A stretch of 64,000 nucleotides of DNA from an uncultured Chromatiales bacterium. GTDB taxonomy: Bacteria > Pseudomonadota > Gammaproteobacteria > SZUA-140. Location of the stretch: the NCBI GenBank assembly GCA_964437335.1, contig CAYTGL010000011.1, forward strand, positions 6,990 to 70,989. Reading direction: 5' to 3'. Under the pieces are notes generated by a model that saw nothing but the letters and a program-made list of their open reading frames with translations, made no database searches and was not told the origin of the DNA. Below are positions 10,453 to 63,316 of the stretch, piece after piece; the stretch's first letter is position 1; each line of letters begins with the position of its first letter. The position numbers and the translations under genes are program-made.

Positions 10453-10472
10453 CGGTGATTCGATTTAGGCTC

Positions 10473-14036: not shown

Positions 14037-14047
14037 CGCCCCTGCTC

Positions 14048-20804: not shown

Positions 20805-20865
20805 GCAGAAAGCACGAAGAGGCCGTCGAATGGATGATGTCGGACGGCCTCTTCGTGCTTTCTGC
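20805..20865. repeat. Perfect 23-bp-stem inverted repeat (hairpin) with 15-nt loop
   Basis: gcagaaagcacgaagaggccgtc ... gacggcctcttcgtgctttctgc; followed on the + strand by a T-rich tract (ctctatttcttccgctttt); possible terminator for the DUF3883 gene. Confidence 0.6.
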
Positions 20866-21809: not shown

Positions 21810-21876
21810 TTACTGAATCACCAATGCCGATAACGGAGTCTCGTTTACTCCGTTATCGGCATTGGTGATTCAGTAA
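21810..21876. repeat. Perfect 30-bp-stem inverted repeat with 7-nt loop
   Basis: ttactgaatcaccaatgccgataacggagt / ctcgttt / actccgttatcggcattggtgattcagtaa; lies in the 1.5-kb non-coding gap upstream of the HNH gene's 3' end. Confidence 0.65.
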
Positions 21877-33114: not shown

Positions 33115-33312
33115 ATGGCCGAAGGCACAATTAAGAGGTTAACCGACAAGGGGTTTGGATTCATCAATACAGGTGGTGCAAAAGACCTCTTCTTCCACTC
33201 GTCGAATGTCGAGGGAACGACGTTCGAGCAACTGCGTGAAGGCCAGAAGGTTTCTTATACCGAAGCCCGCAGCGACAAAGGGCCATGTGCTGAGAACGTC
33301 AAGCCGGTGTAG
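33115..33312 (+). CDS. csp: Cold-shock protein (CspA family)
   Basis: MAEGTIKRLTDKGFGFINTGGAKDLFFHSS... with RNP-1-like KGFGFI; 65 aa; ORF-track start 32968 is upstream and out of family range. Confidence 0.9.
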   Translation: MAEGTIKRLTDKGFGFINTGGAKDLFFHSSNVEGTTFEQLREGQKVSYTEARSDKGPCAENVKPV

Positions 33313-33469
33313 CTCCGCTGCCTGACTGACTATGCCCGAGGCTTCACCTGCACACCTCCGCAGTAAGGCAGCGCAGTCGCAATGAATCTTAAGAGCAGCG
33401 AAGTGCCCAGCTAGTCCTGTTCTGCCCAGCGTGCAAGAAGTGCGGCATGGAGCCTGATACACACCCAGA

Positions 33470-34420: not shown

Positions 34421-34431
34421 AAGGAGACTGC

Positions 34432-35344
34432 CATGTCTGTCGCTCTTCCCAAGCTGCGTGTAGGCGATCCCCTACGCCACGAAGCCCTTATAGTCTTTCC
34501 GCTCTTTTCCGAACAAGATGGTGAGGTTGATTACCGCTTGTCGGATGAAGCCTTGGCCGAGCAGTCTCTCCTGGTCGAAGAAGTTAGCGAAGGCGGTTCC
34601 GTGCCTGACCTCCTGGTGGAGAATAAGGGTGACGTTCGAGTCCTGTTCCTAGAGGGTGAAGAACTTGTGGGGGCAAAGCAAAACCGAATTCTGAATACGT
34701 CAGTTCTGGTGGCCGCCCACACCAAGATCAAGATCCCCGTATCCTGCGTGGAGCAGGGTCGGTGGGGCTACAAATCTCGATACTTCGGGTCGAGTGGCTC
34801 TCATTCTCCCTCGAAGCTGCGTCGGGCGCTCAAGGGGTCGGTGAGCAAGTCAATCAAGGAAGAGCGAGGCTACCGATCCGATCAGGCCGAAGTTTGGAAG
34901 GAAGTCGCCTGCCTGCACGCTGCTCATGCTGTTGATTCTGGAACAGGGGCCATGTCGGACGCTTTCGACACCTACCAGGAGCGCATCGCCTCGTATCGGG
35001 AGCAGCTGAATTACGCCGAAGGGGCTTCTGGTGTTGCCGTGGCCATTGGAGATCGAGTGGTTTCCATTGATCTCTTCGATAAACCGGCGACTTGCCGCAA
35101 GGTTTGGGACCGGCTGCTCTCGGGTGCCGTGTTCGATGCGCTGGAAGCCGGTCAAACCGACAACGTTGCCTCGGCAGCAGATGTGGAACAGCTTTTGGCG
35201 GCTGCTGGCGATCTGTCCTGGGAGCAATCCAAAGCGGTTGGAGAGGGCGTCGAGTACCGGGCCGAGTCCAAGCGAGGCGACCACGCTTCGGCCCTCGCCT
35301 TCGAGGACACATTGGTTCACAGCAGCGTGCTGTCGGCGGGGTAA
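34432..35344 (+). CDS. Hypothetical protein (~304 aa, start MSVALPKLRV after an aaggag RBS)
   Basis: ORF-track 33785..35344 trimmed to the Met at 34432, which is preceded by aaaggagactgcc; the upstream part of that ORF is antisense to the 33470..34420 gene. Confidence 0.55.
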
Positions 35345-35464: not shown

Positions 35465-35545
35465 CCTGTTGCCGGTCTCACTCTAAGCCAAACTCTCTTC
35501 GATTCCGCACCTTGCCAACCAAGCTCTTGATTTCAGCCCCCATCT
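35465..35545 (-). pseudogene. Remnant of the 3' end of a metallophosphoesterase paralog
   Basis: About 70 bp at ~85% identity to 31660..31730; translates to GGKMGAEIKSLVGKVRNRREFGLE* versus [25 protein letters not shown]... at the C-terminus of the 31608..32660 gene. Confidence 0.6.
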
Positions 35546-35569
35546 TGCCGCCACGTGCAGTTAGTCCTC

Positions 35570-37463: not shown

Positions 37464-38420
37464 ATGTCGGAACCGAACGATTTTCGCCCCAATGCCCTGA
37501 GCCACCTGGTTGGACAGGAACACGTTCGCCAGGTTGTCAGCACCGCACTCGATTACAGCTTCCAAGAGCAAGTTTCCTTCCCGCACGCTTTGGCACTCGG
37601 TCCACCAGGCGTCGGCAAGACGGCTATGGCCAGGGTGATCTCCCAAGAACTTGCGTCGGGATTCCACGAATGCCTGGCTTCAGCGATCACATCTCCAGCT
37701 GAATTTTTCGCTGTGCTGATGCGTGCCAAGGATCTGGACGTCGTGTTTTTTGACGAACTTCACGTTTTGGACCCGGCCTACCAACACGCACTTCTGATTG
37801 CGACGGACGAAGGAAAGATCTTCTTGCCGAATAGCAATGGCGGTGCCCCTCAAGCAATCAACTTGGCAAAATTTTCCCTCATAGCGGCCACGACAGACGA
37901 ACACAAAGTTATTCGCCCTCTGGTCGATCGGTTCAAGCTCATCTTGCGTTTCTCTTATTACACCAAAGTGGAGTTGGCCGAGATTGTTCGCACCCGAGCC
38001 AAGGGACTTGGCTGGCAGATTAAGAGTGATGTCGCTGATCCGATCGCTGAACGAAGCAAAGGCGTTCCACGCCTGGCAATTCGTCTGTTGCAAAGCTGCT
38101 GGCGTGTATGTCGTGCAGGTGGCGACCACACCATCACCCGCAAACACTTGGAACGAGCGTGCGCTCTGGAACAGATCGACGCCAATGGGCTCGACGCAAC
38201 TGAGCAGCAGTACCTGGTGTTGCTTGCAAACGGCCCGCTGAGATTGAACGTGCTGTCCAGCATCCTCGGTCTTCCCGCCCGAACGGTTTCCCACGTCACC
38301 GAGTCGTTCCTGATCCGCAGCGGCCTGGTTACCAAAGATAAGAACGGCATGCGGATGCTTACTGCCAAAGGAATGGAGCACCTGGGAGCGTCACATTCCG
38401 GTAAGGATGGTGGCAAATGA
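37464..38420 (+). CDS. RuvB-like AAA+ ATPase (divergent Holliday-junction helicase homolog)
   Basis: FRPNALSHLVGQEHVRQVV (RuvB N-terminal pattern), Walker A GPPGVGKTAMAR, Walker B VVFFDELH, sensor and winged-helix-like C-terminus; divergent from canonical RuvB; 4-bp overlap with the next gene. Confidence 0.65.
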   Translation: MSEPNDFRPNALSHLVGQEHVRQVVSTALDYSFQEQVSFPHALALGPPGVGKTAMARVISQELASGFHECLASAITSPAEFFAVLMRAKDLDVVFFDELHVLDPAYQHALLIATDEGKIFLPNSNGGAPQAINLAKFSLIAATTDEHKVIRPLVDRFKLILRFSYYTKVELAEIVRTRAKGLGWQIKSDVADPIAERSKGVPRLAIRLLQSCWRVCRAGGDHTITRKHLERACALEQIDANGLDATEQQYLVLLANGPLRLNVLSSILGLPARTVSHVTESFLIRSGLVTKDKNGMRMLTAKGMEHLGASHSGKDGGK

Positions 38421-38896
38421 CCGACAACAAGCCGTCGCAATCGTATCTATCTTGTACGGACGTCGCTCGTCGCCTGGGCCTGAGTCGCCAGCGTTTCTGG
38501 CAGCTTCGGCGTGATGGCATTTTCCCTCAGCCTTTGGTTGATGAAGAAACAGGGCGGCAGTTCTACACGCAGGAACAACTCGATTTGTGTTTGGATCTGC
38601 GCAAAAGAAACGTCGGCATGAATGGTAGAGTCGTTTTGTTCTATTCAGTTCGGCCAACAGCAACGATGCCCAAGCCCACAAAGAAGAAGCCGTTGTCGAA
38701 GCCGACGACGGGACAGCACCAGGCGATCATCGAATCGTTGAAAGCACTTGGCCTGGTCGGCGTCATCGATGCTCAGGTGGAGACGACGATCAAGCAACTG
38801 TACCCTGCGGGGACAAGCCGCCCAGATCACGGTGAACTTGTGCGGAACATTTTCCTGCACATACAGCGAAACAATTCCAGCAATAACGTCAAGTGA
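38417..38896 (+). CDS. Excisionase/AlpA-like HTH protein
   Basis: LSCTDVARRLGLSRQRFWQLRRDGIFPQP is an HTH_17-type motif; immediately upstream of the tyrosine recombinase. Confidence 0.6.
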   Translation: MTDNKPSQSYLSCTDVARRLGLSRQRFWQLRRDGIFPQPLVDEETGRQFYTQEQLDLCLDLRKRNVGMNGRVVLFYSVRPTATMPKPTKKKPLSKPTTGQHQAIIESLKALGLVGVIDAQVETTIKQLYPAGTSRPDHGELVRNIFLHIQRNNSSNNVK

Positions 38897-38938
38897 TAAT
38901 AGCCATTATCAGCCCAGTTAGAGGGAGAAAGCGTAAAC

Positions 38939-39877
38939 ATGGTGTCACATTCACGTCCCGAAGGCCGCAAGAATTCGGGCGATAATGTTTTCGGCGGTGT
39001 GCCAGTTGGTCAGGAAGAGGCATCTCTCCTCAGCCAGTTTCTGTCGGCGCAGGACTTGGCCGAAAACAGTCGCCGTGCAGTCATCAATGATGTGCGGAAG
39101 TTTACCAGATGGTTTGCCGAGGCAAACCATGAGCCGTTCACAGTCGGCCGTGTCACCACTCGTGACATTGCCGACTTTCGGGATCACCTGCGCCGCAAGC
39201 AGGATCAAGCCGTCGCCACAGTCAACCGTGCCTTGATGTCGATTCGCCGCTACTTTGGCTGGTTGGTTGAGCAGGGTCACCTTCATGCCAATCCCGCAAA
39301 GGCAGTCAAAGAGCTGCGAACCGTGGAACTTTCGCCCAAGGGGATGGATCGTGCGGCGGTGCGACGACTGCTCCGTGAGATCGAGCTTCGGCAGGACGTA
39401 CGGGCCAACGCCATTTTCCACCTGCTGCTCTACACTGGCTGCCGCTGTGGCGATCTCGTGAACCTTGACATGGCCGACCTCCTTGTGAGCGACCGCAGCG
39501 GTTCAGTGGTCTACAGATTCGGTAAAGGCAACAAGCAGCGATCGGTGCCGTTGCCCGTTCCTGCCCGTCGAGCATTAGCGACCTACCTGGAAACTCGGCC
39601 GCCTTCGGAAAGTCAGCGGATCTTCATCGGCGAACGAGGTCCACTCGGCGAGCGGGGAATTCGAGCGTTGTGCGACAAATACTCAGCTCTGATCGGCGTG
39701 AAAATCCACCCACACCTACTGCGGCACACGATGGCCCACGGCTATTTGGATGCCAACCCTGGTGACCTCGTCGGGCTTGCCCAACTACTTGGCCACAGCA
39801 ACTTGAACACGACCGCACGATACACAAAGAAGAGCCAGGAAGAGTTGCGGGCGGCAGCGGAGAAGGTTGAGTATTGA
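38939..39877 (+). CDS. Tyrosine site-specific recombinase (XerC/D-type integrase)
   Basis: Core-binding N-terminal domain plus catalytic box [38 protein letters not shown] (R..H..R..Y). Confidence 0.85.
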
Positions 39878-41497: not shown

Positions 41498-41513
41498 GGT
41501 TACCTTGTACCTT
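41498..41513 (+). promoter_or_regulatory. Motif copy 2 (GGTTACCTTGTACCTT) upstream of the DUF932 gene
   Basis: About 60 nt upstream of the start at 41572. Confidence 0.45.
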
Positions 41514-41571
41514 CCCAGTGCGAGCCGCTCAACGGTAGCGGCAAACGCAAAATGCACTAGGGAGACTTACG

Positions 41572-42552
41572 ATGCCAGCTGAAATTTCCTTCGTCAATGG
41601 AAAAGCTGAAGCCGCCTTCGCCTTGAAGCCAGCGTGGTGGGACGCTGCAAACCGTTGCACGCTCGACCACGTGCCCGACTCGGCAGGGATGATTCGGGCC
41701 GCACATTTGAACTGGGAGGTTCAACCGCAACCGATCTACAACGCCGACGGCCGAATCATCGAAGGGTATAGCACGACGGTTCGCTTGGACACGGGTTTGC
41801 ACCTTGGCGTGATGTCCGATCAATATCGTGTCGTTCAGAACGCCGAGGGTTTCCGTTTTCTCGACAACTTGCTGCGAGATGGCGTCATGCGGTACGAGTC
41901 GGCTGGTGCCTTGCGTGGCGGCCGCACCGTGTGGGCCTTAGCTCGAATGCCTTCGGTGGACACGATCGCTGAAGGCGACGACGTGTGCCGCTACTGCTTA
42001 TGGCTGAATTCGCACGACGGCACGGGCGCAATCTACGCCATCCCCACCAGCGTGCGAGTGGTTTGTGCAAATACAGCCGCCTTGGCAATCCGTGGCCAGC
42101 GTGGGATTAAACACATGGGCGACATGGACGCCAAGCTGAAGCAGGCGCATGAACTGCTCAGCCAAGCCGACCGCCAATTCACCGACTTTAGGGATAATGC
42201 CCAACTGCTTGCCAACCGCCGATATAGCCCAGTTGATGCCAAGCAGTACGTTGCAACCTTGTTGCCAGAACCAGAAGAGGCAGGCCGTTCGCTTTCGATC
42301 CGTGAACGCAAGGTCGAAGAAATCCGCATCGCACTCCGTAGCGATCGGCAAAATATCGCATCGATCCAAGGCACCTGGTGGAGCCTTTACAACGCCGTCT
42401 CTGAGGGAATCGACCACGGCCGTTTCTACGGGTTCAAAGGCAAAGGCCAACAACGGGCCGAAAACCGTATGACTTCCGTCATGATGGGCCAGGGGGCGGA
42501 ATTCAAACGCCAGGCTTTCGATCTGGCCGTATCGATGGCGCAGGCTTCGTAG
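41572..42552 (+). CDS. DUF932-family protein (phage/plasmid-associated)
   Basis: Conserved WLNSHDGTGA block and overall length ~326 aa typical of DUF932. Confidence 0.65.
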   Translation: MPAEISFVNGKAEAAFALKPAWWDAANRCTLDHVPDSAGMIRAAHLNWEVQPQPIYNADGRIIEGYSTTVRLDTGLHLGVMSDQYRVVQNAEGFRFLDNLLRDGVMRYESAGALRGGRTVWALARMPSVDTIAEGDDVCRYCLWLNSHDGTGAIYAIPTSVRVVCANTAALAIRGQRGIKHMGDMDAKLKQAHELLSQADRQFTDFRDNAQLLANRRYSPVDAKQYVATLLPEPEEAGRSLSIRERKVEEIRIALRSDRQNIASIQGTWWSLYNAVSEGIDHGRFYGFKGKGQQRAENRMTSVMMGQGAEFKRQAFDLAVSMAQAS

Positions 42553-42565
42553 CATCTTCACTTCC

Positions 42566-42590
42566 CGCCCACCCGGCTCCCGCCGGGTGG
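42566..42590 (+). terminator. GC-rich hairpin after the DUF932 gene
   Basis: cccacccggc tcccg ccgggtggg followed by ctttgtc. Confidence 0.5.
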
Positions 42591-42652
42591 GCTTTGTCAA
42601 ACGCATACAGCAAGAGCCGCCGGCCATTGGCCGGCGGCTTCGTCTTTCTCAA

Positions 42653-42670
42653 GTAGTTGATTTGTACCTT
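42653..42670 (+). promoter_or_regulatory. Motif copy 3 (GTAGTTGATTTGTACCTT), preceded by hairpin 42614..42638
   Basis: Hairpin gccgccggcc attg gccggcggc, then the motif, then the small ORF at 42705. Confidence 0.5.
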
Positions 42671-42704
42671 TGACGGCTGCGATCTACAGCTCGACCGAGT
42701 CCAA

Positions 42705-42905
42705 ATGGAGTCATTCACCATGTCGATAGATGACGGCCCAAACCGCACTTTTCGCAATCACTACATGTGCCCCATTTGCGAACACGAATGGTCAGACGAG
42801 TTGACTGCCACTTGTGATGACGATTGCCCAAGATGCGGCACACGACACATTTCGCCTTTCGATAGTGAGGAAATTGCGGACGATGGTTCGTCGGTGATCG
42901 ATTGA
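42705..42905 (+). CDS. Small zinc-ribbon protein (66 aa)
   Basis: CPICEHEW ... CDDDCPRCGTRH (two CxxC pairs); start at MESFTM after ggag. Confidence 0.5.
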   Translation: MESFTMSIDDGPNRTFRNHYMCPICEHEWSDELTATCDDDCPRCGTRHISPFDSEEIADDGSSVID

Positions 42906-42961
42906 ATTGTCGGCATTTGATAACACCCGCCCTCATAAGGGGCGGGCTTCGTCGTTCGCAG

Positions 42962-42979
42962 GTAGTTGATTTGTACCTT
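42962..42979 (+). promoter_or_regulatory. Motif copy 4 (GTAGTTGATTTGTACCTT), preceded by hairpin 42925..42947
   Basis: Hairpin cccgccc tcataa ggggcggg. Confidence 0.5.
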
Positions 42980-43026
42980 CCCAAAGCGAGTCACACACTC
43001 ATCAACACTCGCACAGGGAAAACCAA

Positions 43027-43446
43027 ATGATCTTTTCAGTCATCTATTCCGTGGATTGCCCCGCCGACGAAAACATCAACAACTTCGCCCCGCCCGACCT
43101 GGTTTTGTGGGACCAAACAGAGGGCGACGACCAATACGAGTACGACTATCTCGAAGGCAGCTGGGAATACGGGCATCACCGAAAATGGGCTGCCCTCCTC
43201 AATCGAGAGCAATTCGACCAATTCATCGCTCGATGTAACCTTATCGCCGAAAACATCCAAACGATGGGTTCTCTGGGAGCCCCTGGTTTTGATTTCGGCT
43301 GGGCACCAGCACTTTCATTCAATGGCCACGACCCTTGTGCCATTCAGAACGCATACGTCACTCCAATCCCCGAAGTTGAACGAGAAACCTGCGACGAACG
43401 GGATTGGCAGCGTGTGCGTAGTGCCATGCTGGCGGTGTACGGGTAA
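43027..43446 (+). CDS. Hypothetical acidic protein (139 aa)
   Basis: ORF begins ~50 nt after motif copy 4. Confidence 0.5.
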   Translation: MIFSVIYSVDCPADENINNFAPPDLVLWDQTEGDDQYEYDYLEGSWEYGHHRKWAALLNREQFDQFIARCNLIAENIQTMGSLGAPGFDFGWAPALSFNGHDPCAIQNAYVTPIPEVERETCDERDWQRVRSAMLAVYG

Positions 43447-43512
43447 TGTTCTTCGTTCTGCCTGGTTCAGCAAGGCCCGCCCCCGCAAGGGGGCGGGCTC
43501 GGTTATATCGAG

Positions 43513-43530
43513 GTAGTTGCTTTGTACCTT
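43513..43530 (+). promoter_or_regulatory. Motif copy 5 (GTAGTTGCTTTGTACCTT), preceded by hairpin 43475..43499
   Basis: Hairpin gcccgccccc gcaa gggggcgggc. Confidence 0.5.
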
Positions 43531-43580
43531 CGTGGGCAAACGTAACCACCAAGCCAACTGCAACGAGGGGGAGAACAACT

Positions 43581-43790
43581 ATGACCGAAGACCAGGCCCG
43601 ATCAGCACTCGCCGAACTGTTGGGACGGTACACAATCGGCAGCGTGCTCCACTTGCTGGCAGACGTTCAACGAGAGCACGCTGATGAAGCACGGCTCATT
43701 GATGATGCCGCAGCGTACGAGCAACTCAAAATGATCGAGCACACGCTGTTCGTCGTGGGCCTTGGCGTCGATGCCGCAAATCCATCGTAA
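43581..43790 (+). CDS. Hypothetical small protein (69 aa)
   Basis: Start MTEDQARSAL preceded by a gagggggag RBS. Confidence 0.5.
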   Translation: MTEDQARSALAELLGRYTIGSVLHLLADVQREHADEARLIDDAAAYEQLKMIEHTLFVVGLGVDAANPS

Positions 43791-43820
43791 CTCAGTCAAT
43801 TCAACTACGGAGCAACCGAC

Positions 43821-44096
43821 ATGCCGATATTCCAGATCGAACAGTATGAACTGCACACTATGAAGTATCGTGTTGAGGCTGTCACGGAAGCCGAGGCAAT
43901 CAAGCGATTGCTGGACGGCGAAGCCGAAGCAGTCGAAAGCAGCTTTGACTTCATCGAAACCGCCGATGATTTCGGTTTGCCTGTCGATGAGAATCGTGAC
44001 CTTGCCGAAGAATTGCGAGCATTGGACGTGGAGATCGGCGACCACGTGATCCCATCGATTCGATCCATCGAACAGGTTGATGAGCAGCAGCCTTAG
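43821..44096 (+). CDS. Hypothetical small acidic protein (91 aa)
   Basis: ORF MPIFQIEQYELHTMKYRVEAVTEAEAIKRLLDGEAE...; followed by hairpin 44116..44135. Confidence 0.45.
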   Translation: MPIFQIEQYELHTMKYRVEAVTEAEAIKRLLDGEAEAVESSFDFIETADDFGLPVDENRDLAEELRALDVEIGDHVIPSIRSIEQVDEQQP

Positions 44097-44153
44097 CGGC
44101 CGTTGTCAGCTAACCGCACCGTCGTTTGACGGTGCGACGTAGCTCTGCTTGTT

Positions 44154-44170
44154 CAGTTACCTTGTACATT
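44154..44170 (+). promoter_or_regulatory. Motif copy 6 (CAGTTACCTTGTACATT), preceded by hairpin 44116..44135
   Basis: Hairpin gcaccgtc gtttgac ggtgc. Confidence 0.45.
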
Positions 44171-44207
44171 GTAAGTGCGACCCCTCACCCCACAAAGGAG
44201 AACAAAA

Positions 44208-44495
44208 TTGGTCGCACCAGCAACACCACGTTTTCGCCTCGGCACAGCCGTTGCCACGCCAGGGGCACTGGCAACCCTTGAAGAAGCAGGCCAGACACCA
44301 GCCGAACTACTGGATCGCCACATTCGTGGCGATTGGGGAGACCTGGACGAAGAAGACAAGCAAGCGAATGAGGACGCCCTGAAGCACGGGGCACGAATCC
44401 TTTCGGCCTACCTGCTGTCCAGCGGCGAAAAGATCTGGGTGATCACCGAGGCAGATCGCAGCAGTACGTGTTTGCTGCGGCCCGACGAGTATTGA
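44208..44495 (+). CDS. Hypothetical protein (~95 aa; probable TTG start after an aaggag RBS; ORF-track Met at 44175 is the alternative)
   Basis: caaaggagaacaaaa TTG GTC GCA ...; conserved-looking C-terminal block RGDWGDLDEEDKQANEDAL ... IWVITEADRSSTCLLRPDEY. Confidence 0.45.
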   Translation: MVAPATPRFRLGTAVATPGALATLEEAGQTPAELLDRHIRGDWGDLDEEDKQANEDALKHGARILSAYLLSSGEKIWVITEADRSSTCLLRPDEY

Positions 44496-48414: not shown

Positions 48415-48795
48415 ATGGCTAAGCAAAAACCAAAGATCCAACACGCTGAGATCGTGCAGCACTTTGCCGCAAAACTGCGGGAATTGCGGCATTCTCGTGG
48501 GATGACCCAAGCGGAACTGGCTGGCCAGGCCAAGGTCACCGTGAGTTACGTGGCTCGATTGGAAGCAGCAGGGGCGGCACCTGGCATCGATTTGGTGGGC
48601 CGATTGGCCGATGCCCTGGGGACGACGGTCGGCGAGTTGCTGCCAACCATGGCCGCCTATGACGAGATCACCACCCTTCGTGACCGAGCGAGAAAACTCG
48701 CCGACCAGCTCATCTCTGGGGCGGATCGAGAGACACTGCTAATGATTTGCCCGTTGTTGGCCCGATTGGGCGAATCACCGACGAGACGGCGTTAG
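48415..48795 (+). CDS. XRE-family HTH transcriptional regulator
   Basis: LRELRHSRGMTQAELAGQAKVTVSYVARLE is the classic HTH_3/XRE pattern. Confidence 0.7.
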   Translation: MAKQKPKIQHAEIVQHFAAKLRELRHSRGMTQAELAGQAKVTVSYVARLEAAGAAPGIDLVGRLADALGTTVGELLPTMAAYDEITTLRDRARKLADQLISGADRETLLMICPLLARLGESPTRRR

Positions 48796-48864: not shown

Positions 48865-49086
48865 ATGCAACGTCGCCACTTCTTCATTGCCGCTATGCTT
48901 TTCTTAATGGGCGGAATTGGCGGCGTGTGCCACGCCGCCAATAAGAAGTACGTGTTCAAAATCCGCACCAAGAGCGGCGGTATTGTGGGCAACATCGTGA
49001 TCGAAGCCCCCGATCAATTCGCCGCCGTGGCAAAGTTGATGCAGCGTTATCCAGGTTGCGAAATCCTGGAGGGGCGGGAGGGGTGA
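48865..49086 (+). CDS. Small secreted hypothetical protein (73 aa)
   Basis: Signal-like N-terminus FFIAAMLFLMGGIGGVCHA. Confidence 0.4.
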   Translation: MQRRHFFIAAMLFLMGGIGGVCHAANKKYVFKIRTKSGGIVGNIVIEAPDQFAAVAKLMQRYPGCEILEGREG

Positions 49087-49106: not shown

Positions 49107-50924
49107 TCAATCAGTCTGATCAATTTCATTTTCTCGATGCCGATAGACGCTCATTTTCGAGCAACCCACCTTTTCGGCGATCTCGGCGGGCGACATTCCT
49201 CCTTTTGATAGTCGGCGGATTTGCTTGATCTGTCGAATGTTGAGGCCACCACCTCCCAGCTTTCGCTCCACCGGAAATGGATCGTCAGGGGTGGCGTCGA
49301 AGACCGGTTTGAGCTTTTCTTGCAGCCATTGGAGAGCCCTGAAGACGTTTCCAAACGGCTTGTTCGTGTAGCACTCGATCAGGCTCTTGCTGCCCAGCGG
49401 AGATCCGTGTCCAAGAAAGATTTCTGAGATCTCGCCTCCAAACTCTTCACGTATCCAATTGGAAGCTGTGTCACGCAACGCCTCTTGGGGCAGTCGTGGA
49501 AACTCAGGCTCAGCGGTCTCGACACGGTCGAGAAGCCGATTCCACATATTTGTTAATTGATGATTTGGATTCCCGCCCTTGGTCGGCTTTGTGAATGAGT
49601 GCCCAGCTTCATTGAGCAGTGCGATGGACGTGGAACGAAATGGAATCTCACCTGTGGTTCCGTCTGCTCTCTTGACGAGTGTTCGCTTGCGTCGTCGATC
49701 GAGTACCCACTCCATGCCCTGAACGGTCAGAGGCCAAAGCAGCCATTCGGCGTATACCTCGGTCTTTGTCCTGATCCGCCGCACGAATGAATCGTCCTCG
49801 GTGAAGTCAAAAGCAATATACTGCGCATATGGGTGCTTTTGACGTAGCGTAATCTCGCCCACCCGCAACGTGGCACATTCCATTCGCTTGAAACCGAGAT
49901 TCAAGCCGCAGAGCAACAAAAACCGCTCAAATGGAACGGCGAACTCATTAAGCGTCTTGAGTTGTTCGACGGTGTAAGTGCGGACTTGCTGGGACGGAGC
50001 AGTTACAGGTGCAGACTTGTCTTTGTTCGACTTTCGGATCGCTAACTTCAACTCATCGAAATCGGTCGGCTTTTTCCAGTCGAAACGATCTGATTTTGAG
50101 AGCCAGCGCATGAATTCCTTGATTCGCTTGGCGTGCTCACGGCAAGTTTTGACAGCAAGCGGACCCGTGCCGTCTTTACGAGCTGGTCTCTGTCTCCAAA
50201 CCTCAATCATCGCATCGCAGCCATCGAAAGTCAGCTTGGACAGCGGCCAATTCAGTTGGTGGGCATTGAAAGACCGTATTCGCTCAAGTGCCGCCAGGTA
50301 CTTCTGCGCTGTATCGCTCAGACGCTTCTCGGTGAGACCTTCCTCTGGATCAGGGTCAACCAACATTCGAACTCGAATGTGATCGTTTTCATAGGCATCC
50401 AGTGCCTCCTTAACCGTAGCTTCTGTGGGATCATGTCCATTCGAAGCTTGAGCGAAGAACCGCACTTCCTCCATGAGGCCCTCTGAAATGGATGCAACCT
50501 CCTGCGACCCCAATTCGTATGCGTCCTCATCTTCGGGCGCAAAGTGGACGAAGGGAAAAATGTTGCGCCACTTTTCAAGAGTCGTGACGTAGTCGAACCG
50601 ATGCCCCATATGGGGTTCGCCCGATGGACGTGTAATCATGTCCATCGGAATTCGGACGCTTGACTCCCCTTGCTCGAATGCTTTGGCGATGTACAGGGTA
50701 AGCTCGTTCCACTCCGAGTCGCCGAGCGTTTCTACGGCGTAATCCCAAAGCTCCTGGATTCGCTGTTTTCGACGCTCCGATTCCCGCTCATTGGTTGTGA
50801 AGCGGAACTTATGGCCGTCCACCTTCCCGCTCTTCGTAGCCTTTCGTCCTAGCTTGGCGCAATAGCGGCCCGTGGCTTTATCTCGACTCAGCGCCGTTCT
50901 TCGAGACTTGCTGCGTGTAGACAT
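49107..50924 (-). CDS. Large tyrosine integrase (phage-integrase family) with C-terminal HTH
   Basis: Catalytic region ...LRDTASNWIREEFGG...FLGHGSP...YTNKP (R/H/Y residues); C-terminal MSPAEIAEKVGCSKMSVYRH HTH; immediately 3' of the tmRNA gene. Confidence 0.75.
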   Translation of the reverse strand: MSTRSKSRRTALSRDKATGRYCAKLGRKATKSGKVDGHKFRFTTNERESERRKQRIQELWDYAVETLGDSEWNELTLYIAKAFEQGESSVRIPMDMITRPSGEPHMGHRFDYVTTLEKWRNIFPFVHFAPEDEDAYELGSQEVASISEGLMEEVRFFAQASNGHDPTEATVKEALDAYENDHIRVRMLVDPDPEEGLTEKRLSDTAQKYLAALERIRSFNAHQLNWPLSKLTFDGCDAMIEVWRQRPARKDGTGPLAVKTCREHAKRIKEFMRWLSKSDRFDWKKPTDFDELKLAIRKSNKDKSAPVTAPSQQVRTYTVEQLKTLNEFAVPFERFLLLCGLNLGFKRMECATLRVGEITLRQKHPYAQYIAFDFTEDDSFVRRIRTKTEVYAEWLLWPLTVQGMEWVLDRRRKRTLVKRADGTTGEIPFRSTSIALLNEAGHSFTKPTKGGNPNHQLTNMWNRLLDRVETAEPEFPRLPQEALRDTASNWIREEFGGEISEIFLGHGSPLGSKSLIECYTNKPFGNVFRALQWLQEKLKPVFDATPDDPFPVERKLGGGGLNIRQIKQIRRLSKGGMSPAEIAEKVGCSKMSVYRHRENEIDQTD

Positions 50925-51112
50925 GGCACTTCCCTGTCATTGGATGCGCCACACAAAGCGAGTTGGAAGCCCTGTCCCATTATCGGCCCATCCGGGGCAC
51001 TATGGGACTTTTCGAGCCTCTCTATGGGACAAAAAGGCTCGAACTAATGGGACTATCGTCGTGAATCGCCCAGTTTCCAGCTAATTTCTGTGGCAAACTT
51101 AGAGTCAGAAGT

Positions 51113-51152
51113 GCCATAAAAATAGCCACTTGCGTCCAAAAACACAAGTGGC
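51113..51152 (-). terminator. Rho-independent terminator of ssrA
   Basis: On the minus strand, GCCACUUGUG UUUUUGGA CGCAAGUGGC followed by UAUUUUUAUGG, directly after the tmRNA 3' end. Confidence 0.6.
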
Positions 51153-51159
51153 CATTGGA

Positions 51160-51520
51160 TGGAGGCGGCGGGAATCGAACCCGCGTCCCGCGATATTTCA
51201 ATAACAGCCTCTACGCGCGTAGTCGAACTCATTTAAGGTTTCGCCGTTCCACCCCCTGTCGACCGGGTGTTGGATTGGCTAGCCGGGGACGGCTTTTTAG
51301 CCCGGGGCGTTCCCAGCGGTGACCCCAGGCGAGTCGAATTTGACGGCCGGCTTTTGGGTCTCTTCGACGAAGACCCGCAGTCGGGGTTGCCGTTACTAGG
51401 CAGCCAGTGCGAGATTATTCTCGGCAAGTAAAATCGTAGTCAGCTTTTTACGTGGCCAACTGACCAACCACGGCACGCCACTGATACATCAGGCTATCCG
51501 GTCGATACCAGTTCGCCCCC
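51160..51520 (-). ncRNA. ssrA: tmRNA (SsrA), ~361 nt
   Basis: 5' end GGGGGCGAACUGGUAUCGACCGGAU (tmRNA 5' consensus). 3' end GGACGCGGGUUCGAUUCCCGCCGCCUCCA (T-arm plus acceptor). Acceptor stem pairs with G3:U70. Internal tag reading frame GCC GAG AAU AAU CUC GCA CUG GCU GCC UAG UAA gives AENNLALAA**. CCA is not encoded. Confidence 0.85.
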
Positions 51521-52162: not shown

Positions 52163-52563
52163 TATACTGCAAACACTGCGCCAGACTGCATCTTTAATTC
52201 GAGCCTAATCAGTAAGGCTATACATCGCAAGCTGTTTGTAGCAGGGACACCGTTTTCAACCAAGACAGGATGGGCAGTTTGAGAGTTCTGTGGGGCAGCA
52301 ACTGCGCCGCCTGCTGTCATTTCGGCATCCTGGGCGGCCTCACTCGGCGGGAATTCCAGCAAATCCCAAATTTCTTTCCAAAGATTGCAGTCCAGGTCGC
52401 GAAATGCTGGTTGTGGATGTTGGTGTGGCCTGTCAGGTAGCCCGCGAATCTTGGCCCAGGGCGAAGCGAGCCGCGGGTGGGGGGCAACCAGGGCATGCAA
52501 CAGCCGCAACATCGTTGCTGTTAATTCCAGCGGGGAATGAAGCTTTTCGTGGAGGGAATTCGA

Positions 52564-53367
52564 ATGATTAAGAAGTTTCTAGGATCGGCCGCGTTGCTGC
52601 TGCTGATCGATGGCGTGGTGTTCGGCTTCGGCGGAACGCGGTGGACCTACGACTCGGCCCGCACGGCGCTGGGCATGGGCCGCGATTCCATCCGGCAAAA
52701 TATGCCGATCGGGTTCGAAATCGAACGGGCCAAGCAACAGTTGGCCGATGTTCGCCCCATGATCACCAACCATAAGCACCGGATGCTCGAAGAAGAGGCA
52801 CAACTGGCCATCCTCGATCGCCAGATCACGGCCCAAGAGAAGAAGCTCACCGAAGATCGCGGTGAAATCCTGATTCTCAAGAACGACCTCACCTCGGGCA
52901 AAGAGTCGTTCCGCTACGGCGGCCGGATCTACACCGTGTCCGACGTCAAGCAAGACATGACCCGCCGCTTCGATCGGCTCAAAACCAACGAGGCCACGGT
53001 GGAAAAAATGCGGCAAACGCGCACGGCGCGCGAGCGGCGGTTGGCGGCCCTGCAAGATAAGGTGGCGGCCATGGAAGCCTCCGTCCGGCAGATGGATGCC
53101 GAAGTCGGCAATCTCGAAGCCCAATTGCAACTCGTCGAAGCAGCCGAGGCGGGATGCGAGTATAATTTGGACGATAGCCCGCTCAGCCGACTCAAATCCC
53201 TCATGGCCGATCTCCAAACCCGCGTGGAAGTTCGGGCACGGATGGCCGACAGCGAGGTCGACGCTTATCAAGAGATCCCGGTCGGGGCGAGCCATTCCGA
53301 CAGCATTGTGGACGAAGTCACTCAATACTTCGAAAACAACCACGGTCAGGTTGTGCTCTCGAATTAG
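52564..53367 (+). CDS. Membrane-anchored coiled-coil protein
   Basis: N-terminal TM (FLGSAALLLLIDGVVFGF), then long heptad-rich region; start at the second Met of ORF 52537. Confidence 0.55.
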   Translation: MIKKFLGSAALLLLIDGVVFGFGGTRWTYDSARTALGMGRDSIRQNMPIGFEIERAKQQLADVRPMITNHKHRMLEEEAQLAILDRQITAQEKKLTEDRGEILILKNDLTSGKESFRYGGRIYTVSDVKQDMTRRFDRLKTNEATVEKMRQTRTARERRLAALQDKVAAMEASVRQMDAEVGNLEAQLQLVEAAEAGCEYNLDDSPLSRLKSLMADLQTRVEVRARMADSEVDAYQEIPVGASHSDSIVDEVTQYFENNHGQVVLSN

Positions 53368-59144: not shown

Positions 59145-59783
59145 ATGGCTCTTAGCGAATATGATCGCGTGTTGATTGGTCGCATTCGCCAGTCCCAAGA
59201 CGAAGCGTGGGATGAAATGATTGCCCGCTTCGAAGGCCGGCTGCTGGCGTTTGTCGATAGCCGCCTTCATAACCGGGCAGCCGCCGAAGACGTGGTGCAA
59301 GAAACCTTCATTGGGTTCCTGACCAGCCTCCCCAACTACGACGAGCGGCGTCCGTTGGAAAGCTGGCTGTTCAGCATCGCGGCCCACAAGCTCACCGATC
59401 ACCTGCGCCGCGAAGGCCGCCGGCCGCGCGTGCCCCTCGTGGCCCAAGGCTCAAGCAACGCCAGTAGCTGGGACGTGCCCGGCGCCGCCCGCGGCGCCAG
59501 CAGCATTTTGCGCAGCGGCGAGCGGCAACGGTTGGAGCGCGACGCGCTCACCACGGCCATGGCTGAAATCCTCGACCACTGGCGCAGCCGAGGCGACTGG
59601 GAAAAGGTGCGCTGCCTGGAACTGCTGCTCGTCCGCGGTTGGGCCAACAAAGACGCCGCCACCCAACTAGGGCTCACCGAGCAAGTGGTGGCCAACTACA
59701 AGTTCGACTTCCTCTCCAAGCTGCGCACGGCAGTTCGCAAGCAAGGGCTGAACCACGACGTGTTCCCGGAGCTCAAACCTTAG
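59145..59783 (+). CDS. ECF-family RNA polymerase sigma factor
   Basis: Region 2 (VVQETFIGFL, SWLFSIAAHKLTDHLRR) and region 4 HTH (VRGWANKDAATQLGLTEQVVANYKFDFLSKLR). Confidence 0.8.
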   Translation: MALSEYDRVLIGRIRQSQDEAWDEMIARFEGRLLAFVDSRLHNRAAAEDVVQETFIGFLTSLPNYDERRPLESWLFSIAAHKLTDHLRREGRRPRVPLVAQGSSNASSWDVPGAARGASSILRSGERQRLERDALTTAMAEILDHWRSRGDWEKVRCLELLLVRGWANKDAATQLGLTEQVVANYKFDFLSKLRTAVRKQGLNHDVFPELKP

Positions 59784-59908
59784 GGATCGAGAACCATATA
59801 ACGAAGGGTGGCTGGGGTCTGGTTGCCGCTCGCCAGTCGTGGGCTACCAGGCAGCCGCTGCCGGCAACCAGCCCCCAGGCGAATCCGGCCCCACGCGATT
59901 TCTGAAAG

Positions 59909-60337
59909 TTGCGAGTTTTGCCAGATAAATTGCCTATGAACATCACTTCCGAAGAACTCGAAGCCTACCTCGACGAAGGTCTCGCCGCGGCCGATATGGC
60001 GCGGATTGAAGACGCCCTGAGGGCCGATCCGGGGCTGACCTCGCAGTTAGCCGAGGTTCAAGCCCGCCGCGATACCGACGGCCACAGCCTCGGCAGCATT
60101 TGGCGGCGCGAGCGGCTCACCTGCCTGTCCCGCGATCAATTCGGCGCCTACCTGCTCGGCACGCTCGAACCCGAGATTGCCGACTACGTGGACTTCCACT
60201 TGGAAACAATCGGCTGCCGCTACTGCCAGGCCAACCTGGCCGACCTGCGGGAACAGCAGGCCCAGCAAGCCACGGGAACCGAAACGCGGCGACGCAAATA
60301 TTTTCAGTCGAGCGTGGGCTATTTGAAACCAAAATAA
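59909..60337 (+). CDS. Putative zinc-binding anti-sigma factor (142 aa)
   Basis: HxxxCxxC motif (DFHLETIGCRYCQ) characteristic of ZAS-type anti-sigma N-terminal domains; immediately downstream of the ECF sigma gene. Confidence 0.55.
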   Translation: MRVLPDKLPMNITSEELEAYLDEGLAAADMARIEDALRADPGLTSQLAEVQARRDTDGHSLGSIWRRERLTCLSRDQFGAYLLGTLEPEIADYVDFHLETIGCRYCQANLADLREQQAQQATGTETRRRKYFQSSVGYLKPK

Positions 60338-60552
60338 ATGGTGATCAGGATCGAGGATTAAATAATGTCCCAATGTACTCGTCATTCTTGCGAAGGCGGG
60401 AATCCAGCTTACGTAGGTCGTGCACTGCATGACACAATGCGGGTCGATACTATATCATCGGCAATCTTGGTTCGGCGTTGAAATCGAATGCACGGCGTTG
60501 AGGGCATCGTGCGAGCCCCAGTGGTAACATGGAGCGTGATTAGCGATTCCAC

Positions 60553-60585
60553 CCGCATTGTGGCAGGCAAGTAAGCCTGCCCTAC
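60553..60585. repeat. REP-like hairpin element CGCATTGTGGCAGGCA(a/g)(g/a)A(a/t)GCCTGCCCTAC
   Basis: Six copies: 60553..60585, 60686..60719, 61931..61961 (inverted), 62060..62092, 62130..62163, 63055..63087; contains the inverted repeat GGCAGGC ... GCCTGCC. Confidence 0.7.
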
Positions 60586-60891
60586 GGGAACTGGCCTGGG
60601 TGCGGCCCGAGGGATCATAGACTGAACGCTCACAGTGACATGCAATCGAGCCCCTGCGCGAATAGAAAAGAGATTGGCGATTCAGACCGCATTGTGGCAG
60701 GCAGAATGCCTGCCCTACCTTTGCTCTTGCATTCTACATGAAACGCCTGGAAAGCAATGTGTGTCACCCTACTTGGGAAGAGAATCGCATGCGTTCTGCC
60801 TCATTTCGACCTGCATTTGGTGGGTACAAGCACAGCCACCCTACGAAATGCACCCAGGCTACGCTTGCTGAATGGTTACATTATTGGCTCG

Positions 60892-61758
60892 TTAAGGTAG
60901 GTCGTGATATCGAATCAGGACGGCAAGATTGTCATCCTTGAAACTCTGGAGTAGTTTTCGCCCAAAGACACACAAGGACTTTTCCCAAGGATGTCCAAAT
61001 ATGCCGCTTTCCAGATCAGGTGAAATAAAGACGTGGTAGTTTCCTATGGGTGCGACGCTTATGGGCCAAGAACTCACATCCAAAATACGAGAGTCATGTG
61101 GATCAAAACGGTAGCATTGGTGATTCAAGTCCAACGCAAAGACGTAGTCTCCTTTAGACGTGCATTGCTGAAACGCACTGATGACAGTCCTCCTAAGAGA
61201 CTCTTCGGCCAGCTGAAAGGCCAAGCTATCCTCGGACTGCAATGTAAGTAATGGACCCACGCCCCAAGTCAGTGCCCCAGGTGGCTCATTGATTCCAGGC
61301 CATGACGACGGATCAGCGCCACGTCGAAAGGAGAATTCCGCCGTAAACCACTCCCATATACGTACCATTTCTTCATCGGACAGCCCCTTCCATCCTCTCT
61401 TCGCTCGATCCTGTTCCCTAAACAATTCTCCGTCTTTGCACCACTGCCTGAAATCCGACGGCTTTAGTAAGAACTCTCGCTGAATCTTATCGATGTTGCC
61501 GACTGCATAAGGCTGCTCCAAGCAATTCATGAGTCGCTCACATAGATCACCCAGATGATCGTCCCGACCAACGTGAAAGAAACCATTCAATCCCATCAGA
61601 AACCAACCAGATGGACGCTTGGCAAGACTGAAGAGTCTCTTGTTGGAAGGTTGAGCGACGATGGTGAGTTGTTCGCCATGATCGATAGAAGGCTCAACTA
61701 TGCAGTTGATGCCTCTTTTCTCAATGGTTCTTCGAATCTTATCGTAGTCAGAGGGCAT
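60892..61758 (-). CDS. Hypothetical protein (288 aa) between the repeat copies
   Basis: Lower-GC ORF flanked on both sides by REP-like elements; no motif recognised. Confidence 0.5.
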   Translation of the reverse strand: MPSDYDKIRRTIEKRGINCIVEPSIDHGEQLTIVAQPSNKRLFSLAKRPSGWFLMGLNGFFHVGRDDHLGDLCERLMNCLEQPYAVGNIDKIQREFLLKPSDFRQWCKDGELFREQDRAKRGWKGLSDEEMVRIWEWFTAEFSFRRGADPSSWPGINEPPGALTWGVGPLLTLQSEDSLAFQLAEESLRRTVISAFQQCTSKGDYVFALDLNHQCYRFDPHDSRILDVSSWPISVAPIGNYHVFISPDLESGIFGHPWEKSLCVFGRKLLQSFKDDNLAVLIRYHDLP

Positions 61759-62177
61759 TTAGCACACGCATGAGCGAAAGAGAAACTCAAAATGCAGGAC
61801 CATTATGTATCCACGGGTCTTCAATGATTAGCCAAGAATTGTAGTGTTCGTTGGTTAGATATATCGTACTGGTGTTGCGATCAAACACGAATCGCCGACC
61901 ATCGCCAACCTTATCCGTGATGTAGTGAATGTAGGGCAGGCTGCTGCCTGCCACAATGCGGGTAGAATCGCCCCTCCCGGTCGCACGCGAAGGGGCGATG
62001 CGGCCAAGAGCCAAGACCATGCAAAAGACTCCGCCAAGAGCGACCATGACACAACCTCGAACCGCATTATGGCAGGCAGAACGCCTACCCTACATTGGCT
62101 GCGCAAATAGAGAAGAGATTGGCGATTCGAACCGCATTGTGGCAGGCAGAATGCCTGCCCTACCTTTGCTGGGCATT

Positions 62178-62285
62178 ACCGAGCAAGTGGTGGCCAACTA
62201 CAAGTTCGACTTCCTCTCCAAGCTGCGCACGGCAGTTCGCAAGCAAGGGCTGAACCACGACGTGTTCCCGGAGCTCAAACCTTAG
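62178..62285 (+). pseudogene. Duplicated 3' fragment of the ECF sigma factor gene (last ~36 codons)
   Basis: Identical to 59676..59783; no upstream coding continuation (preceded by a REP-like element). Confidence 0.7.
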
Positions 62286-62410
62286 GGATCGAGAACCATA
62301 TAACGAAGGGTGGCTGGGGTCTGGTTGCCGCTCGCCAGTCGTGGGCTACCAGGCAGCCGCTGCCGGCAACCAGCCCCCAGGCGAATCCGGCCCCACGCGA
62401 TTTCTGAAAG

Positions 62411-62839
62411 TTGCGAGTTTTGCCAGATAAATTGCCTATGAACATCACTTCCGAAGAACTCGAAGCCTACCTCGACGAAGGTCTCGCCGCGGCCGATATG
62501 GCGCGGATTGAAGACGCCCTGAGGGCCGATCCGGGGCTGACCTCGCAGTTAGCCGAGGTTCAAGCCCGCCGCGATACCGACGGCCACAGCCTCGGCAGCA
62601 TTTGGCGGCGCGAGCGGCTCACCTGCCTGTCCCGCGATCAATTCGGCGCCTACCTGCTCGGCACGCTCGAACCCGAGATTGCCGACTACGTGGACTTCCA
62701 CTTGGAAACAATCGGCTGCCGCTACTGCCAGGCCAACCTGGCCGACCTGCGGGAACAGCAGGCCCAGCAAGCCACGGGAACCGAAACGCGGCGACGCAAA
62801 TATTTTCAGTCGAGCGTGGGCTATTTGAAACCAAAATAA
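62411..62839 (+). CDS. Second, identical copy of the putative anti-sigma factor
   Basis: 142-aa translation identical to 59909..60337; inside repeat copy 2. Confidence 0.55.
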   Translation: MRVLPDKLPMNITSEELEAYLDEGLAAADMARIEDALRADPGLTSQLAEVQARRDTDGHSLGSIWRRERLTCLSRDQFGAYLLGTLEPEIADYVDFHLETIGCRYCQANLADLREQQAQQATGTETRRRKYFQSSVGYLKPK

Positions 62840-63316
62840 ATGGTGATCAGGATCGAGGATTAAATAATGTCCCAATGTACTCGTCATTCTTGCGAAGGCG
62901 GGAATCCAGCTTACGTAGGTCGTGCACTGCATGACACAATGCGGGTCGATACTATATCATCGGCAATCTTGGTTCGGCGTTGAAATCGAATGCACGGCGT
63001 TGAGGGCATCGTGCGAGCCCCAGTGGTAACATGGAGCGTGATTAGCGATTCCACCCGCATTGTGGCAGGCAAGTAAGCCTGCCCTACGGGAACTTGGGCC
63101 GTAAGGACTTTTATGTCGACGATTTTTTGAGCCGGTACGAAGATATGTGCAACACTTTCCCAAAGCCTGAGTGGGCTGCCTCGCAAATGCTTTCGAAAAC
63201 CCCCTTGCCTGATTATCTCGCTGAAGGTTTGCGGTTGCTTTCAGAGGATGGCATTGATGTGGACAGTCTGTAGATGTAACCAAGTACAGCGTGTGCGATG
63301 CAGGATAAACAATAAG

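Follow-up and report, generated by a model that had tools for sequence, protein, structure and literature searches.

Islands at the gene for transfer-messenger RNA (tmRNA), ssrA, include CP4-57 of Escherichia coli, in which ssrA is followed by intA, and VPI-1 of Vibrio cholerae. The integrases (Int) of phage lambda, Tn916, and Tn1549 are heterobivalent, arm-binding enzymes, and the P′ arm sites of lambda are phased repeats that lie beside the core on the element side. Islands targeted to tRNA and tmRNA genes have been catalogued with Islander and TIGER (PMC4383910, PMC12424338), and under the Islander model integration occurs at the 3′ end of the target gene, with the element restoring the downstream part (PMC4383910). 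Here, we describe a 64,000-nt stretch of contig CAYTGL010000011.1 (assembly GCA_964437335.1; the whole stretch is called the window hereafter) in which the gene for a 605-aa integrase, int, directly follows an intact ssrA on the same strand and borders a long block of foreign composition that carries a complete type 1 bacteriophage exclusion (BREX) operon. The locus shares with the catalogued islands this position of the integrase gene, the restored 3′ end of the target, the foreign composition, the accessory cargo, and the absence from a relative; in contrast to them, no displaced 3′ fragment of ssrA was found within 57 kb. Its integrase also departs from typical island integrases in being negative for PF00589, in being ∼200 aa longer, and in carrying a C-terminal helix-turn-helix (HTH) of the resolvase type. 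We consider it likely that this integrase inserted a genomic island, at least 57 kb long, into a planctomycete chromosome by site-specific recombination at the 3′ end of ssrA.

The junction at the 3′ end of ssrA

ARAGORN found a single tmRNA gene in the window, at 51160-51520 on the minus strand, with the tag peptide AENNLALAA. The Rfam model RF00023 matched 51157-51520 over its full length (1-374) with 156 bits against a gathering cut-off of 47, and together with segment identities to other loci this placed ssrA at 51157-51520 (−). As the original prediction had stated, the int open reading frame (ORF; 49107-50924, −) starts at 50924, 235 nt past the tmRNA 3′ end at 51160 and on the same strand. 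Immediately after ssrA we found a 16-bp hairpin (51121-51156) followed by UAUUUUUAU, with a fold of −26.2 kcal/mol and z = −6.1 relative to shuffled sequences. The tmRNA terminator is therefore intact, which had also been claimed. Hairpin and U-tract together span 51117-51156 (−).

To obtain an integrase-less relative for comparison, we relied on the right-hand side of ssrA. The protein encoded at 52537-53367 led us, through the protein database, to L017 and L018 (GCA_013328955.1 and GCA_013328935.1); a scan of genome contigs with a 276-aa right-flank protein gave no match. Exact look-ups of the 276-aa ORF and of DJ-1 likewise returned no record, and the right-flank gene is entered in the collection as a 267-aa product. 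Both assemblies share with the window, in the same order, genes for a response regulator, a coiled-coil protein, an FHA-region protein, a Ser/Thr kinase, an extracytoplasmic function (ECF) sigma factor, and an anti-sigma factor, with a DNA identity of 64 to 80% over this right flank, and their ssrA has the same tag peptide. No integrase is present at ssrA in L017 or L018. Left of the gene, they carry core-like genes, namely those for a 558-aa Helicase_C protein and RibD_C, MFS, methyltransferase, CoA-transferase, AhpC, and RraA genes at a GC content of 0.60, and none of these had a blastn or tblastx match in the left 51 kb of the window, nor was any found in the 6 kb that precede it (see below). 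Comparison with relatives whose ssrA site is empty had been proposed as a check on the original prediction, and in this pair such a site, with ssrA and right flank kept, no int, and other genes on the left, was indeed found.

We then compared the window, segment by segment, with L017 and with two integrase-bearing loci, L009 and L003. Over the body of ssrA, the window is 89% identical to L017, 70% to L009, and 62% to L003. Over the last 29 nt of the gene (T-arm and 3′ strand of the acceptor stem, 51160-51188, −), the corresponding values are 100, 97, and 97%; over the next 60 nt after ssrA they are 62, 82, and 89%, and over the following 175 nt 50, 77, and 75%. The last 29 nt of ssrA are 97 to 100% identical across all loci compared, and the BLAST block of high identity with L003 begins exactly at 51188. 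Hence, within these 29 nt the nearest relative flips: up to them it is the host relative, and beyond them the relatives of the element. From this flip across 51160-51188 we infer that these nucleotides are the recombination (core) region. A flip at this place would be expected if an element had integrated at the 3′ end of the gene and had contributed the sequence downstream, including a terminator of its own. In the mechanism that we propose, the crossover would fall at some point within the invariant 29 nt, and the element would bring the rest of the ssrA 3′ end along with its own terminator hairpin, such that ssrA would stay intact.

The fold and the spacer alignments indicate that the terminator is of the element type. 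In the window its stem is GCCACTTG..CAAGTGGC, which is common to nine integrase-bearing loci, and in our alignment of the spacer between ssrA and int the hairpin stem GCCACTTGC..GCAAGTGGC is common to the aligned integrase-bearing loci; L013 has a variant of its own. The native terminator of L017 differs, its stem being GCCACCTTGC..GCAAGGTGGC. According to the same alignment, the invariant 29-nt end of ssrA and the terminator hairpin are followed by ∼40 variable nt and then by three direct (A/T)GTCCCAT repeats with the unit TGTCCCAT. In the window, the direct copies lie at 51047, 51024, and 51002 (−), 22 to 23 nt apart, with one inverted copy at 50974, and these four sites (50974-51053) hold, within 80 nt, four of the eight GTCCCAT matches of the entire 64 kb. 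The phased triplet is also present in L003, L009, L011, L013, L023, L024, and L025, and the inverted copy in some loci only. Of the 13 other loci at which ssrA adjoins an int homologue, only the most distant lacks the triplet.

The locus L013 helps to interpret these repeats. There, int is inverted and convergent with ssrA, its 3′ end facing the 3′ end of ssrA (L013 1347-3718), and the TGTCCCAT repeats have kept their place beside ssrA. The repeats therefore belong to the attachment site and not to the int promoter. They are candidate arm-type sites of attL and most likely serve as accessory binding sites of the integrase, arranged like the lambda P′ sites beside the core on the element side. 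They would be read through the extra N-terminal domain or the C-terminal HTH of the integrase, whose gene would follow them at the ssrA-proximal edge of the island. A second pair of GTCCCAT matches, at 24999 and 25032, was considered as a distal arm and discarded, as it lies inside a 670-aa helicase ORF with no ssrA fragment near it.

A switch of similarity and of tetranucleotide composition at this position would look alike if two planctomycetes with a common 30-nt ssrA 3′ end had been joined during assembly, in which case the left block would lie beside the ssrA of another organism. The k=31 Logan assembly of metagenome SRR16798009 breaks exactly at 51188, at the join of ssrA and int, and the 30-mer at this point must therefore have more than one neighbor in that metagenome. 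Several planctomycetes sharing the ssrA 3′ end would be expected to give the same break. Moreover, proteins from both sides of the join are found on one 78,376-nt NCBI contig, and this junction of ssrA with an int of lower GC recurs in contigs named like long-read assemblies (L003/L008, 661 kb; L014, 4.29 Mb; L011, 217 kb). By our reasoning, a shared stretch of ∼30 nt is also too short to mislead assemblers that use long k-mers or read pairs. We give a chimeric join a small chance and regard it as very unlikely; even then, the left block would remain an ssrA-linked island in its true host.

The 605-aa integrase and its family

The protein encoded at 49107-50924 is assigned as a divergent tyrosine integrase from the profiles of its homologues, an AlphaFold (AF2) model, and residue conservation. 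In the predicted architecture, an N-terminal extension of ∼165 residues precedes the core-binding and catalytic domains, and an HTH of the resolvase type (residues 565-598) closes the protein. With the ORF itself, Pfam returned solely HTH_7/HTH_23 at residues 565-598, and PF00589 gave no match to the protein even at E ≤ 1. Across Pfam, NCBIfam, and PHROGs, the catalytic domain went unrecognized and the C-terminal resolvase/Hin-type HTH alone was seen, and a PDB profile search gave HTH matches and a weak match to the core-binding domain of lambda Int, nothing else. Homologues are plentiful. A word-indexed protein search yielded 31 close ones at 50 to 90% identity, and an exhaustive profile search yielded 1,213 cluster representatives (50% identity clusters) at E ≤ 1e-3, mostly of 500 to 650 aa; no relatives were found among the IMG/VR viral contigs. 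PF00589 matched 17 of 82 full-length homologues (best E = 3e-8), and by sequence the integrase belongs to that family only transitively, via these homologues.

An AF2 model computed from the 82-sequence alignment reached a pLDDT of 92.5 and a pTM of 0.74; it superseded an earlier model from 23 close sequences that had a poor catalytic domain and weak matches. Upon a Foldseek search of the PDB, the top 35 matches of the model were all tyrosine recombinases at a probability of 1.00 each, including Tn1549 Int, Cre/Tre, VchIntIA, XerA, and lambda Int. These matches span the core-binding and catalytic domains with TM-scores of 0.45 to 0.64 normalized to the target. By its modeled fold, then, the 605-aa ORF is a divergent tyrosine recombinase, and the "large tyrosine integrase" of the original prediction is borne out by the model, by the conserved residues, and by the homologues that match PF00589, with Pfam silent on the ORF itself. 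The core-binding and catalytic folds correspond to those of lambda Int and Tn916/Tn1549 Int (Foldseek probability 1.00), from which the protein differs in its low identity (11 to 16%), in a Glu for the His of the HxxR motif, and in the extra C-terminal HTH_7.

Residues R347, K387, R484, H506, and Y519, the predicted catalytic set, are invariant in the close subfamily. In the wider family, K387, R484, and Y519 are kept in at least 79 of the 82 members and H506 in 68. When aligned by hhalign to the Xer-type recombinase encoded elsewhere in the window (see below), K387, R484, H506, and Y519 fell on the catalytic Lys, Arg, His, and Tyr, and N342, not R347, fell on the position of the first Arg; hhalign of a shallow int alignment against the same Xer protein was uninformative. 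We take R347 to be the first catalytic Arg from the helix boundaries of the model and from the canonical geometry of the active site. This Arg (as K346-R347) is kept in the close subfamily only and is variable in distant relatives, and the His of the canonical HxxR is replaced by E481.

Our survey of genomic context covered every locus with an int homologue that could be fetched. At 12 other distinct loci, an ssrA gene on the strand of the int homologue ends ∼200 to 260 nt before it (L003 (=L008), L004 (=L014), L005, L006, L007, L009, L010, L011, L016, L023, L024, and L027). The homologue at L016, from Fuerstiella, is only 27% identical and still adjoins ssrA, and that at L009 is 91% identical to the integrase of the window. 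The host flank beyond ssrA varies, with MT-A70/PSCyt, HisKA_3, OPT, HrpA-like helicase, or BacA genes in the place of the response regulator of the window. The conserved feature is the linkage of ssrA and int, not chromosomal synteny. At all loci, the GC content of int is below that of the host flank. The inverted int of L013 and the altered integrases of L012 and L026, which share an int with the last ∼27 residues swapped for unrelated sequence, suggest rearrangements at the island edge. Separately, L009 encodes a tyrosine-recombinase-like ORF (8001-8675) just upstream of the 5′ side of ssrA that resembles the Xer protein of the window in the C-terminal half of the latter (30% identity). At L007, positions 19825-19843 match the ssrA T-arm at 18 of 19 nt and were tried as an attR; the candidate was rejected because the sequence after it does not continue into the rest of the ssrA 3′ end.

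A gene found this consistently beside ssrA, in which standard profile libraries detect an HTH alone, could also be imagined as a conserved chromosomal neighbor with a host function, for instance as an HTH regulator, in place of the integrase of a mobile element. We find this scarcely credible: the gene is absent from the closest relative, L017, its GC content is below that of the host at every locus, and the tyrosine-recombinase fold and nucleophile are present. In addition, the DNA of int is 85% similar between the window and L003, compared with 62 to 71% for the body of ssrA. Regarding the family as a whole, we tentatively raise the possibility, in which our confidence is low, that the 1,213 clusters represent a large unannotated clade of ∼550- to 650-aa tyrosine recombinases that may be devoted to the ssrA 3′ end in Planctomycetota. 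In such a clade, the C-terminal resolvase-type HTH, instead of or besides an N-terminal arm-binding domain, may read the three phased TGTCCCAT sites, and the active site would do without the HxxR His and, in most members, without the canonical first Arg.

Composition and extent of the foreign block

Left of ssrA, the block at 1-51159 has a mean GC content of 0.537 (0.477 to 0.581 in 1-kb windows), compared with 0.618 in the right flank. The Logan contig L022, which is identical to the window, reaches 6,066 nt past the window start, and this extension carries HATPase_c_3 and PIN_8 genes at a GC content of 0.519. To the right of ssrA, GC is 0.56 at 51 to 53 kb and 0.61 to 0.675 at 53 to 60 kb, and it comes down again to 0.47 to 0.60 at 60.4 to 64 kb. 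The GC shift of the original prediction is thus real, but it is not sharp at ssrA, the principal rise being ∼2 kb to the right of the gene.

The tetranucleotide break at ssrA is much sharper than the GC break, and the tetranucleotide analysis that had been suggested as a check gave a block that is uniform and unlike the host flank. Window positions 1 to 24 kb and 24 to 49 kb correlate with each other at r = 0.97, and each half of the block correlates with the 6-kb extension at 0.93 to 0.94. For 1 to 24 kb against the right flank, r falls to 0.56. The native left flank of L017, for its part, correlates with the right flank of the window at 0.85 and with the left block at 0.61 to 0.64. Likewise, GC at third codon positions (GC3) is 0.43 to 0.74 in genes of the block versus 0.70 to 0.79 in the five genes of the right flank that begin with the response regulator and end with the ECF sigma factor. 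From GC, tetranucleotide, and GC3 data we therefore conclude that at least 57 kb left of ssrA form one coherent block foreign to the lineage. The ∼51 kb left of ssrA had been described as lower and heterogeneous in GC; the first is correct, and the second does not hold for the tetranucleotide signature.

The 3′ end of ssrA should have a displaced copy at the far end of an integrated island, and a direct repeat of this kind had been proposed as a check. Neither the window nor the 6-kb extension yielded one of at least 15 nt. Patterns allowing three mismatches returned ssrA alone, and word-7 BLAST of the ssrA 3′ end and spacer against window and extension gave only chance matches of 9 to 15 nt. 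A terminator of the L017 type was not found in the window or the extension either. Because neither an attR nor an L017-type terminator nor a left-flank gene of L017 was found, the far end must lie beyond the available sequence or have been lost. Two candidate boundaries were dismissed. At 18490-18513 of L022, an inverted pair of TGTCC and GGACA lies close to the contig end, but the remaining 290 nt contain no ssrA fragment, and the end of a Logan contig at window position 33191 is inside the gene for a cold-shock protein and is likely a break at a multicopy gene. The idea of an ssrA-targeted island with BREX and other defense genes stands, on the ssrA linkage of the family, the absence from L017, and the foreign composition; the statement that the window covers most of this island is not supported, with no far end located.

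Several observations weigh against entry of one island at ssrA through the 605-aa integrase. A displaced ssrA 3′ fragment is missing from the window and extension, the second island boundary is absent from the available sequence, and the island could be immobile. The catalytic domain escapes the profile libraries, E481 stands where the HxxR His is expected, and the first Arg is kept in the close subfamily only, as described above. The int genes of L012, L026, and L028 border a contig end, their C-termini are altered or truncated, and no ssrA precedes them; at L030, the match to int starts at residue 123, the N-terminus being missing, and no ssrA lies within 10 kb. The unoccupied site comes from one integrase-less relative, represented by two assemblies with the same arrangement and matched by the right flank only. 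To these, the assembly break at 51188 has to be added.

Part of this evidence would suit an island that integrated at ssrA, then lost attR or its distal part, and no longer excises, its integrase being kept without a function or with another one. The lack of a displaced fragment in 57 kb would fit such a decayed, fixed remnant, as would the truncated or displaced int homologues in L012/L026 and L030. Nonetheless, the int ORF is intact and has every residue that is invariant in the subfamily, the arm repeats and terminator are conserved, the strongly non-host signature suggests a recent arrival, and the far end may simply be beyond the available sequence. On this basis we think a decayed remnant unlikely, and the island may still be mobile.

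The original prediction had also raised the possibility of a composite of several elements and had pointed to a second recombinase at 38939. The latter is a bona fide Xer-type tyrosine recombinase (38939-39877, +; PF00589, E = 2.4e-25), the last of a trio at 37464-39877 (+) that begins with a RuvB-like AAA+ ATPase and a 159-aa HTH protein. In a composite, the integrase would own only the ssrA-proximal 12 to 14 kb (∼37 to 51 kb, from int to the Xer trio or the DJ-1 gene), and BREX and the rest would have come earlier or independently on other islands, or would have been inserted in tandem at this site. The second tyrosine recombinase is in line with this, as are the housekeeping-like csp, GDSL, and DJ-1 genes at 33 to 37 kb, the GC swings of 0.48 to 0.58 per kb, the 74-nt direct repeat that brackets 31.7 to 35.5 kb, and the lack of an attR delimiting a single element. 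However, the block contains no ssrA fragment inside it that would betray a tandem junction, its two halves have the same tetranucleotide signature, and no part of it is syntenic with L017. Furthermore, L012, a Pirellulaceae contig, has brxA, the RuvB-like/HTH/Xer trio, and an int homologue in the same order within 12 kb, and ARPP-1 (33785-35344 in the window) also adjoins an int homologue, in L030. We consequently do not favor a composite and deem it unlikely. Because the order recurs in L012, the second recombinase seems to belong to the cargo or backbone of this type of element and not to be the integrase of a second island, and the links to other loci, namely the L012 order, ARPP-1 beside int in L030, and a 95-aa and a 73-aa gene near int, argue that it belongs to this element type.

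In the reading that we prefer, the whole block would be a single integrase-marked defense island at ssrA, with int at its edge and a composition that sets it apart from the right flank (GC 0.537 versus 0.618; r = 0.56 versus 0.97 within the block).

Cargo of the proposed island and its significance

The cargo begins with a complete type 1 BREX operon (692-15210, −), whose six genes were matched by Pfam with E values of 1e-19 to 1e-144 and called on L022. The genes are arranged as brxA, brxB, brxC, pglX, two small ORFs, pglZ, and brxL. Like other type 1 BREX defense islands, the window has all six genes in canonical order, clustered with PDC-S36, NERD/UvrD-like helicase, PIN_8, and HNH genes; it differs from them in three additional small ORFs and in its carrier, an ssrA-linked island in Planctomycetota. 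The small ORFs are in the regions 5345-6477 and 10036-10470. Two of them, of 178 and 199 aa and without a Pfam match, separate pglX from pglZ; the third, of 136 aa in the Logan gene calls, separates brxC from pglX.

Further cargo at 15480-37034 was annotated with Pfam and PADLOC. It includes a PDC-S36/NOV_C protein (19427-20578; PADLOC E = 7e-101), an HNH gene (22073-22990), a NERD/UvrD-like helicase (24404-26416; PADLOC candidate C3a187), a PIN_8 gene (30082-31425), csp for the cold-shock protein (33117-33313), and ARPP-1, along with metallophosphoesterase, GDSL, and DJ-1 genes. From these annotations, the cargo appears to be mainly anti-phage defense, namely BREX with PDC-S36, NERD/UvrD-like helicase, PIN_8, and HNH candidates. 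Between the PDC-S36 and HNH genes we noted two perfect palindromes, at 21810-21876 (30-nt arms, 7-nt loop) and 20805-20865 (23-nt arms, 15-nt loop). The 74-nt direct repeat consists of copies at 31659-31732 and 35484-35557 (88% identity) that bracket 3.8 kb with csp and ARPP-1, one copy being inside the 3′ end of the metallophosphoesterase gene.

In the trio at 37464-39877, the RuvB-like ATPase is below the threshold of the NCBIfam RuvB model (222 bits versus a cut-off of 282), and the 159-aa HTH protein has a weak excisionase-like PHROG match. PADLOC gave no confident match to the trio, with weak partial matches for the ATPase and none for the HTH and Xer proteins. The corresponding trio of L012 (3666-6015) is 46, 31, and 28% identical in amino acids for ATPase, HTH, and Xer proteins, respectively. 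Farther right, a gene for a DUF932/TIGR03299 "phage/plasmid-like protein" is followed by five small genes (41572-44495, +), the last of which encodes 95 aa (44208-44495) and recurs near int homologues in L009, L030, and L034. At 41499-44183, an intergenic repeat (…GTAGTTGATTTGTACCTT… / GTTACCTTGTACCTTCCC) is present in front of the DUF932 gene and in front of several small plus-strand genes after it; it is possibly a shared promoter or operator.

Next to int are a gene for an XRE/Cro-type HTH regulator (48415-48795, +; PF13560/PF01381 and PHROG repressor families) and a convergent gene for a 73-aa protein with, by eye, a hydrophobic, signal-peptide-like N-terminus (48865-49086, +). This small protein had no Pfam or PHROG match. 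Its gene adjoins int in L003, L005, L010, L031, and L034, at 48 to 68% amino acid identity by tblastn.

As to the kind of element, no relaxase and no type IV secretion or coupling gene was present among the window ORFs scanned, and the locus is not classed as an integrative and conjugative element (ICE); DUF932/TIGR03299 is the sole hint of a plasmid- or ICE-like origin. The window scans revealed no virion or packaging genes, IMG/VR yielded no relative of the integrase, and the locus is not classed as a prophage either.

Outside the island, the right flank contains a duplication of its own at 59667-62950. Two copies of a ∼780-bp stretch, which comprises the 3′ end of the ECF sigma factor gene and the gene for the zf-HC2 anti-sigma factor, are 99% identical and lie 2,502 nt apart. 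Between them is an insert of low GC (60451-62168; 0.47 to 0.54) with a DUF2716 gene (60892-61758, −). The insert holds several copies, in both orientations, of a 32-nt unit resembling repetitive extragenic palindromes or miniature inverted-repeat transposable elements, GATTAGCGATTCCACCCGCATTGTGGCAGGCA. In L017 and L020, the ∼780-bp stretch is single and the insert is absent.

An ssrA-targeted, integrase-marked defense island is a well-known kind of element; defense-laden islands brought to tmRNA genes by tyrosine integrases are textbook knowledge, and conceptually nothing is new in this respect. What is new here is a large planctomycete-associated integrase family that is missed by standard profiles and that comes with a C-terminal HTH and conserved phased repeats. 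Because Pfam, NCBIfam, and PHROGs profiles do not detect the family, island finders that depend on them will miss such islands. For the mobile islands of Planctomycetota, a phylum with few described mobile elements and few genetic tools, the locus offers a well-delimited attL, in which the core region of 29 nt is joined by a terminator that the element brings and by the phased TGTCCCAT repeats, and an ssrA-specific integrase with defined sites could become an integration tool.

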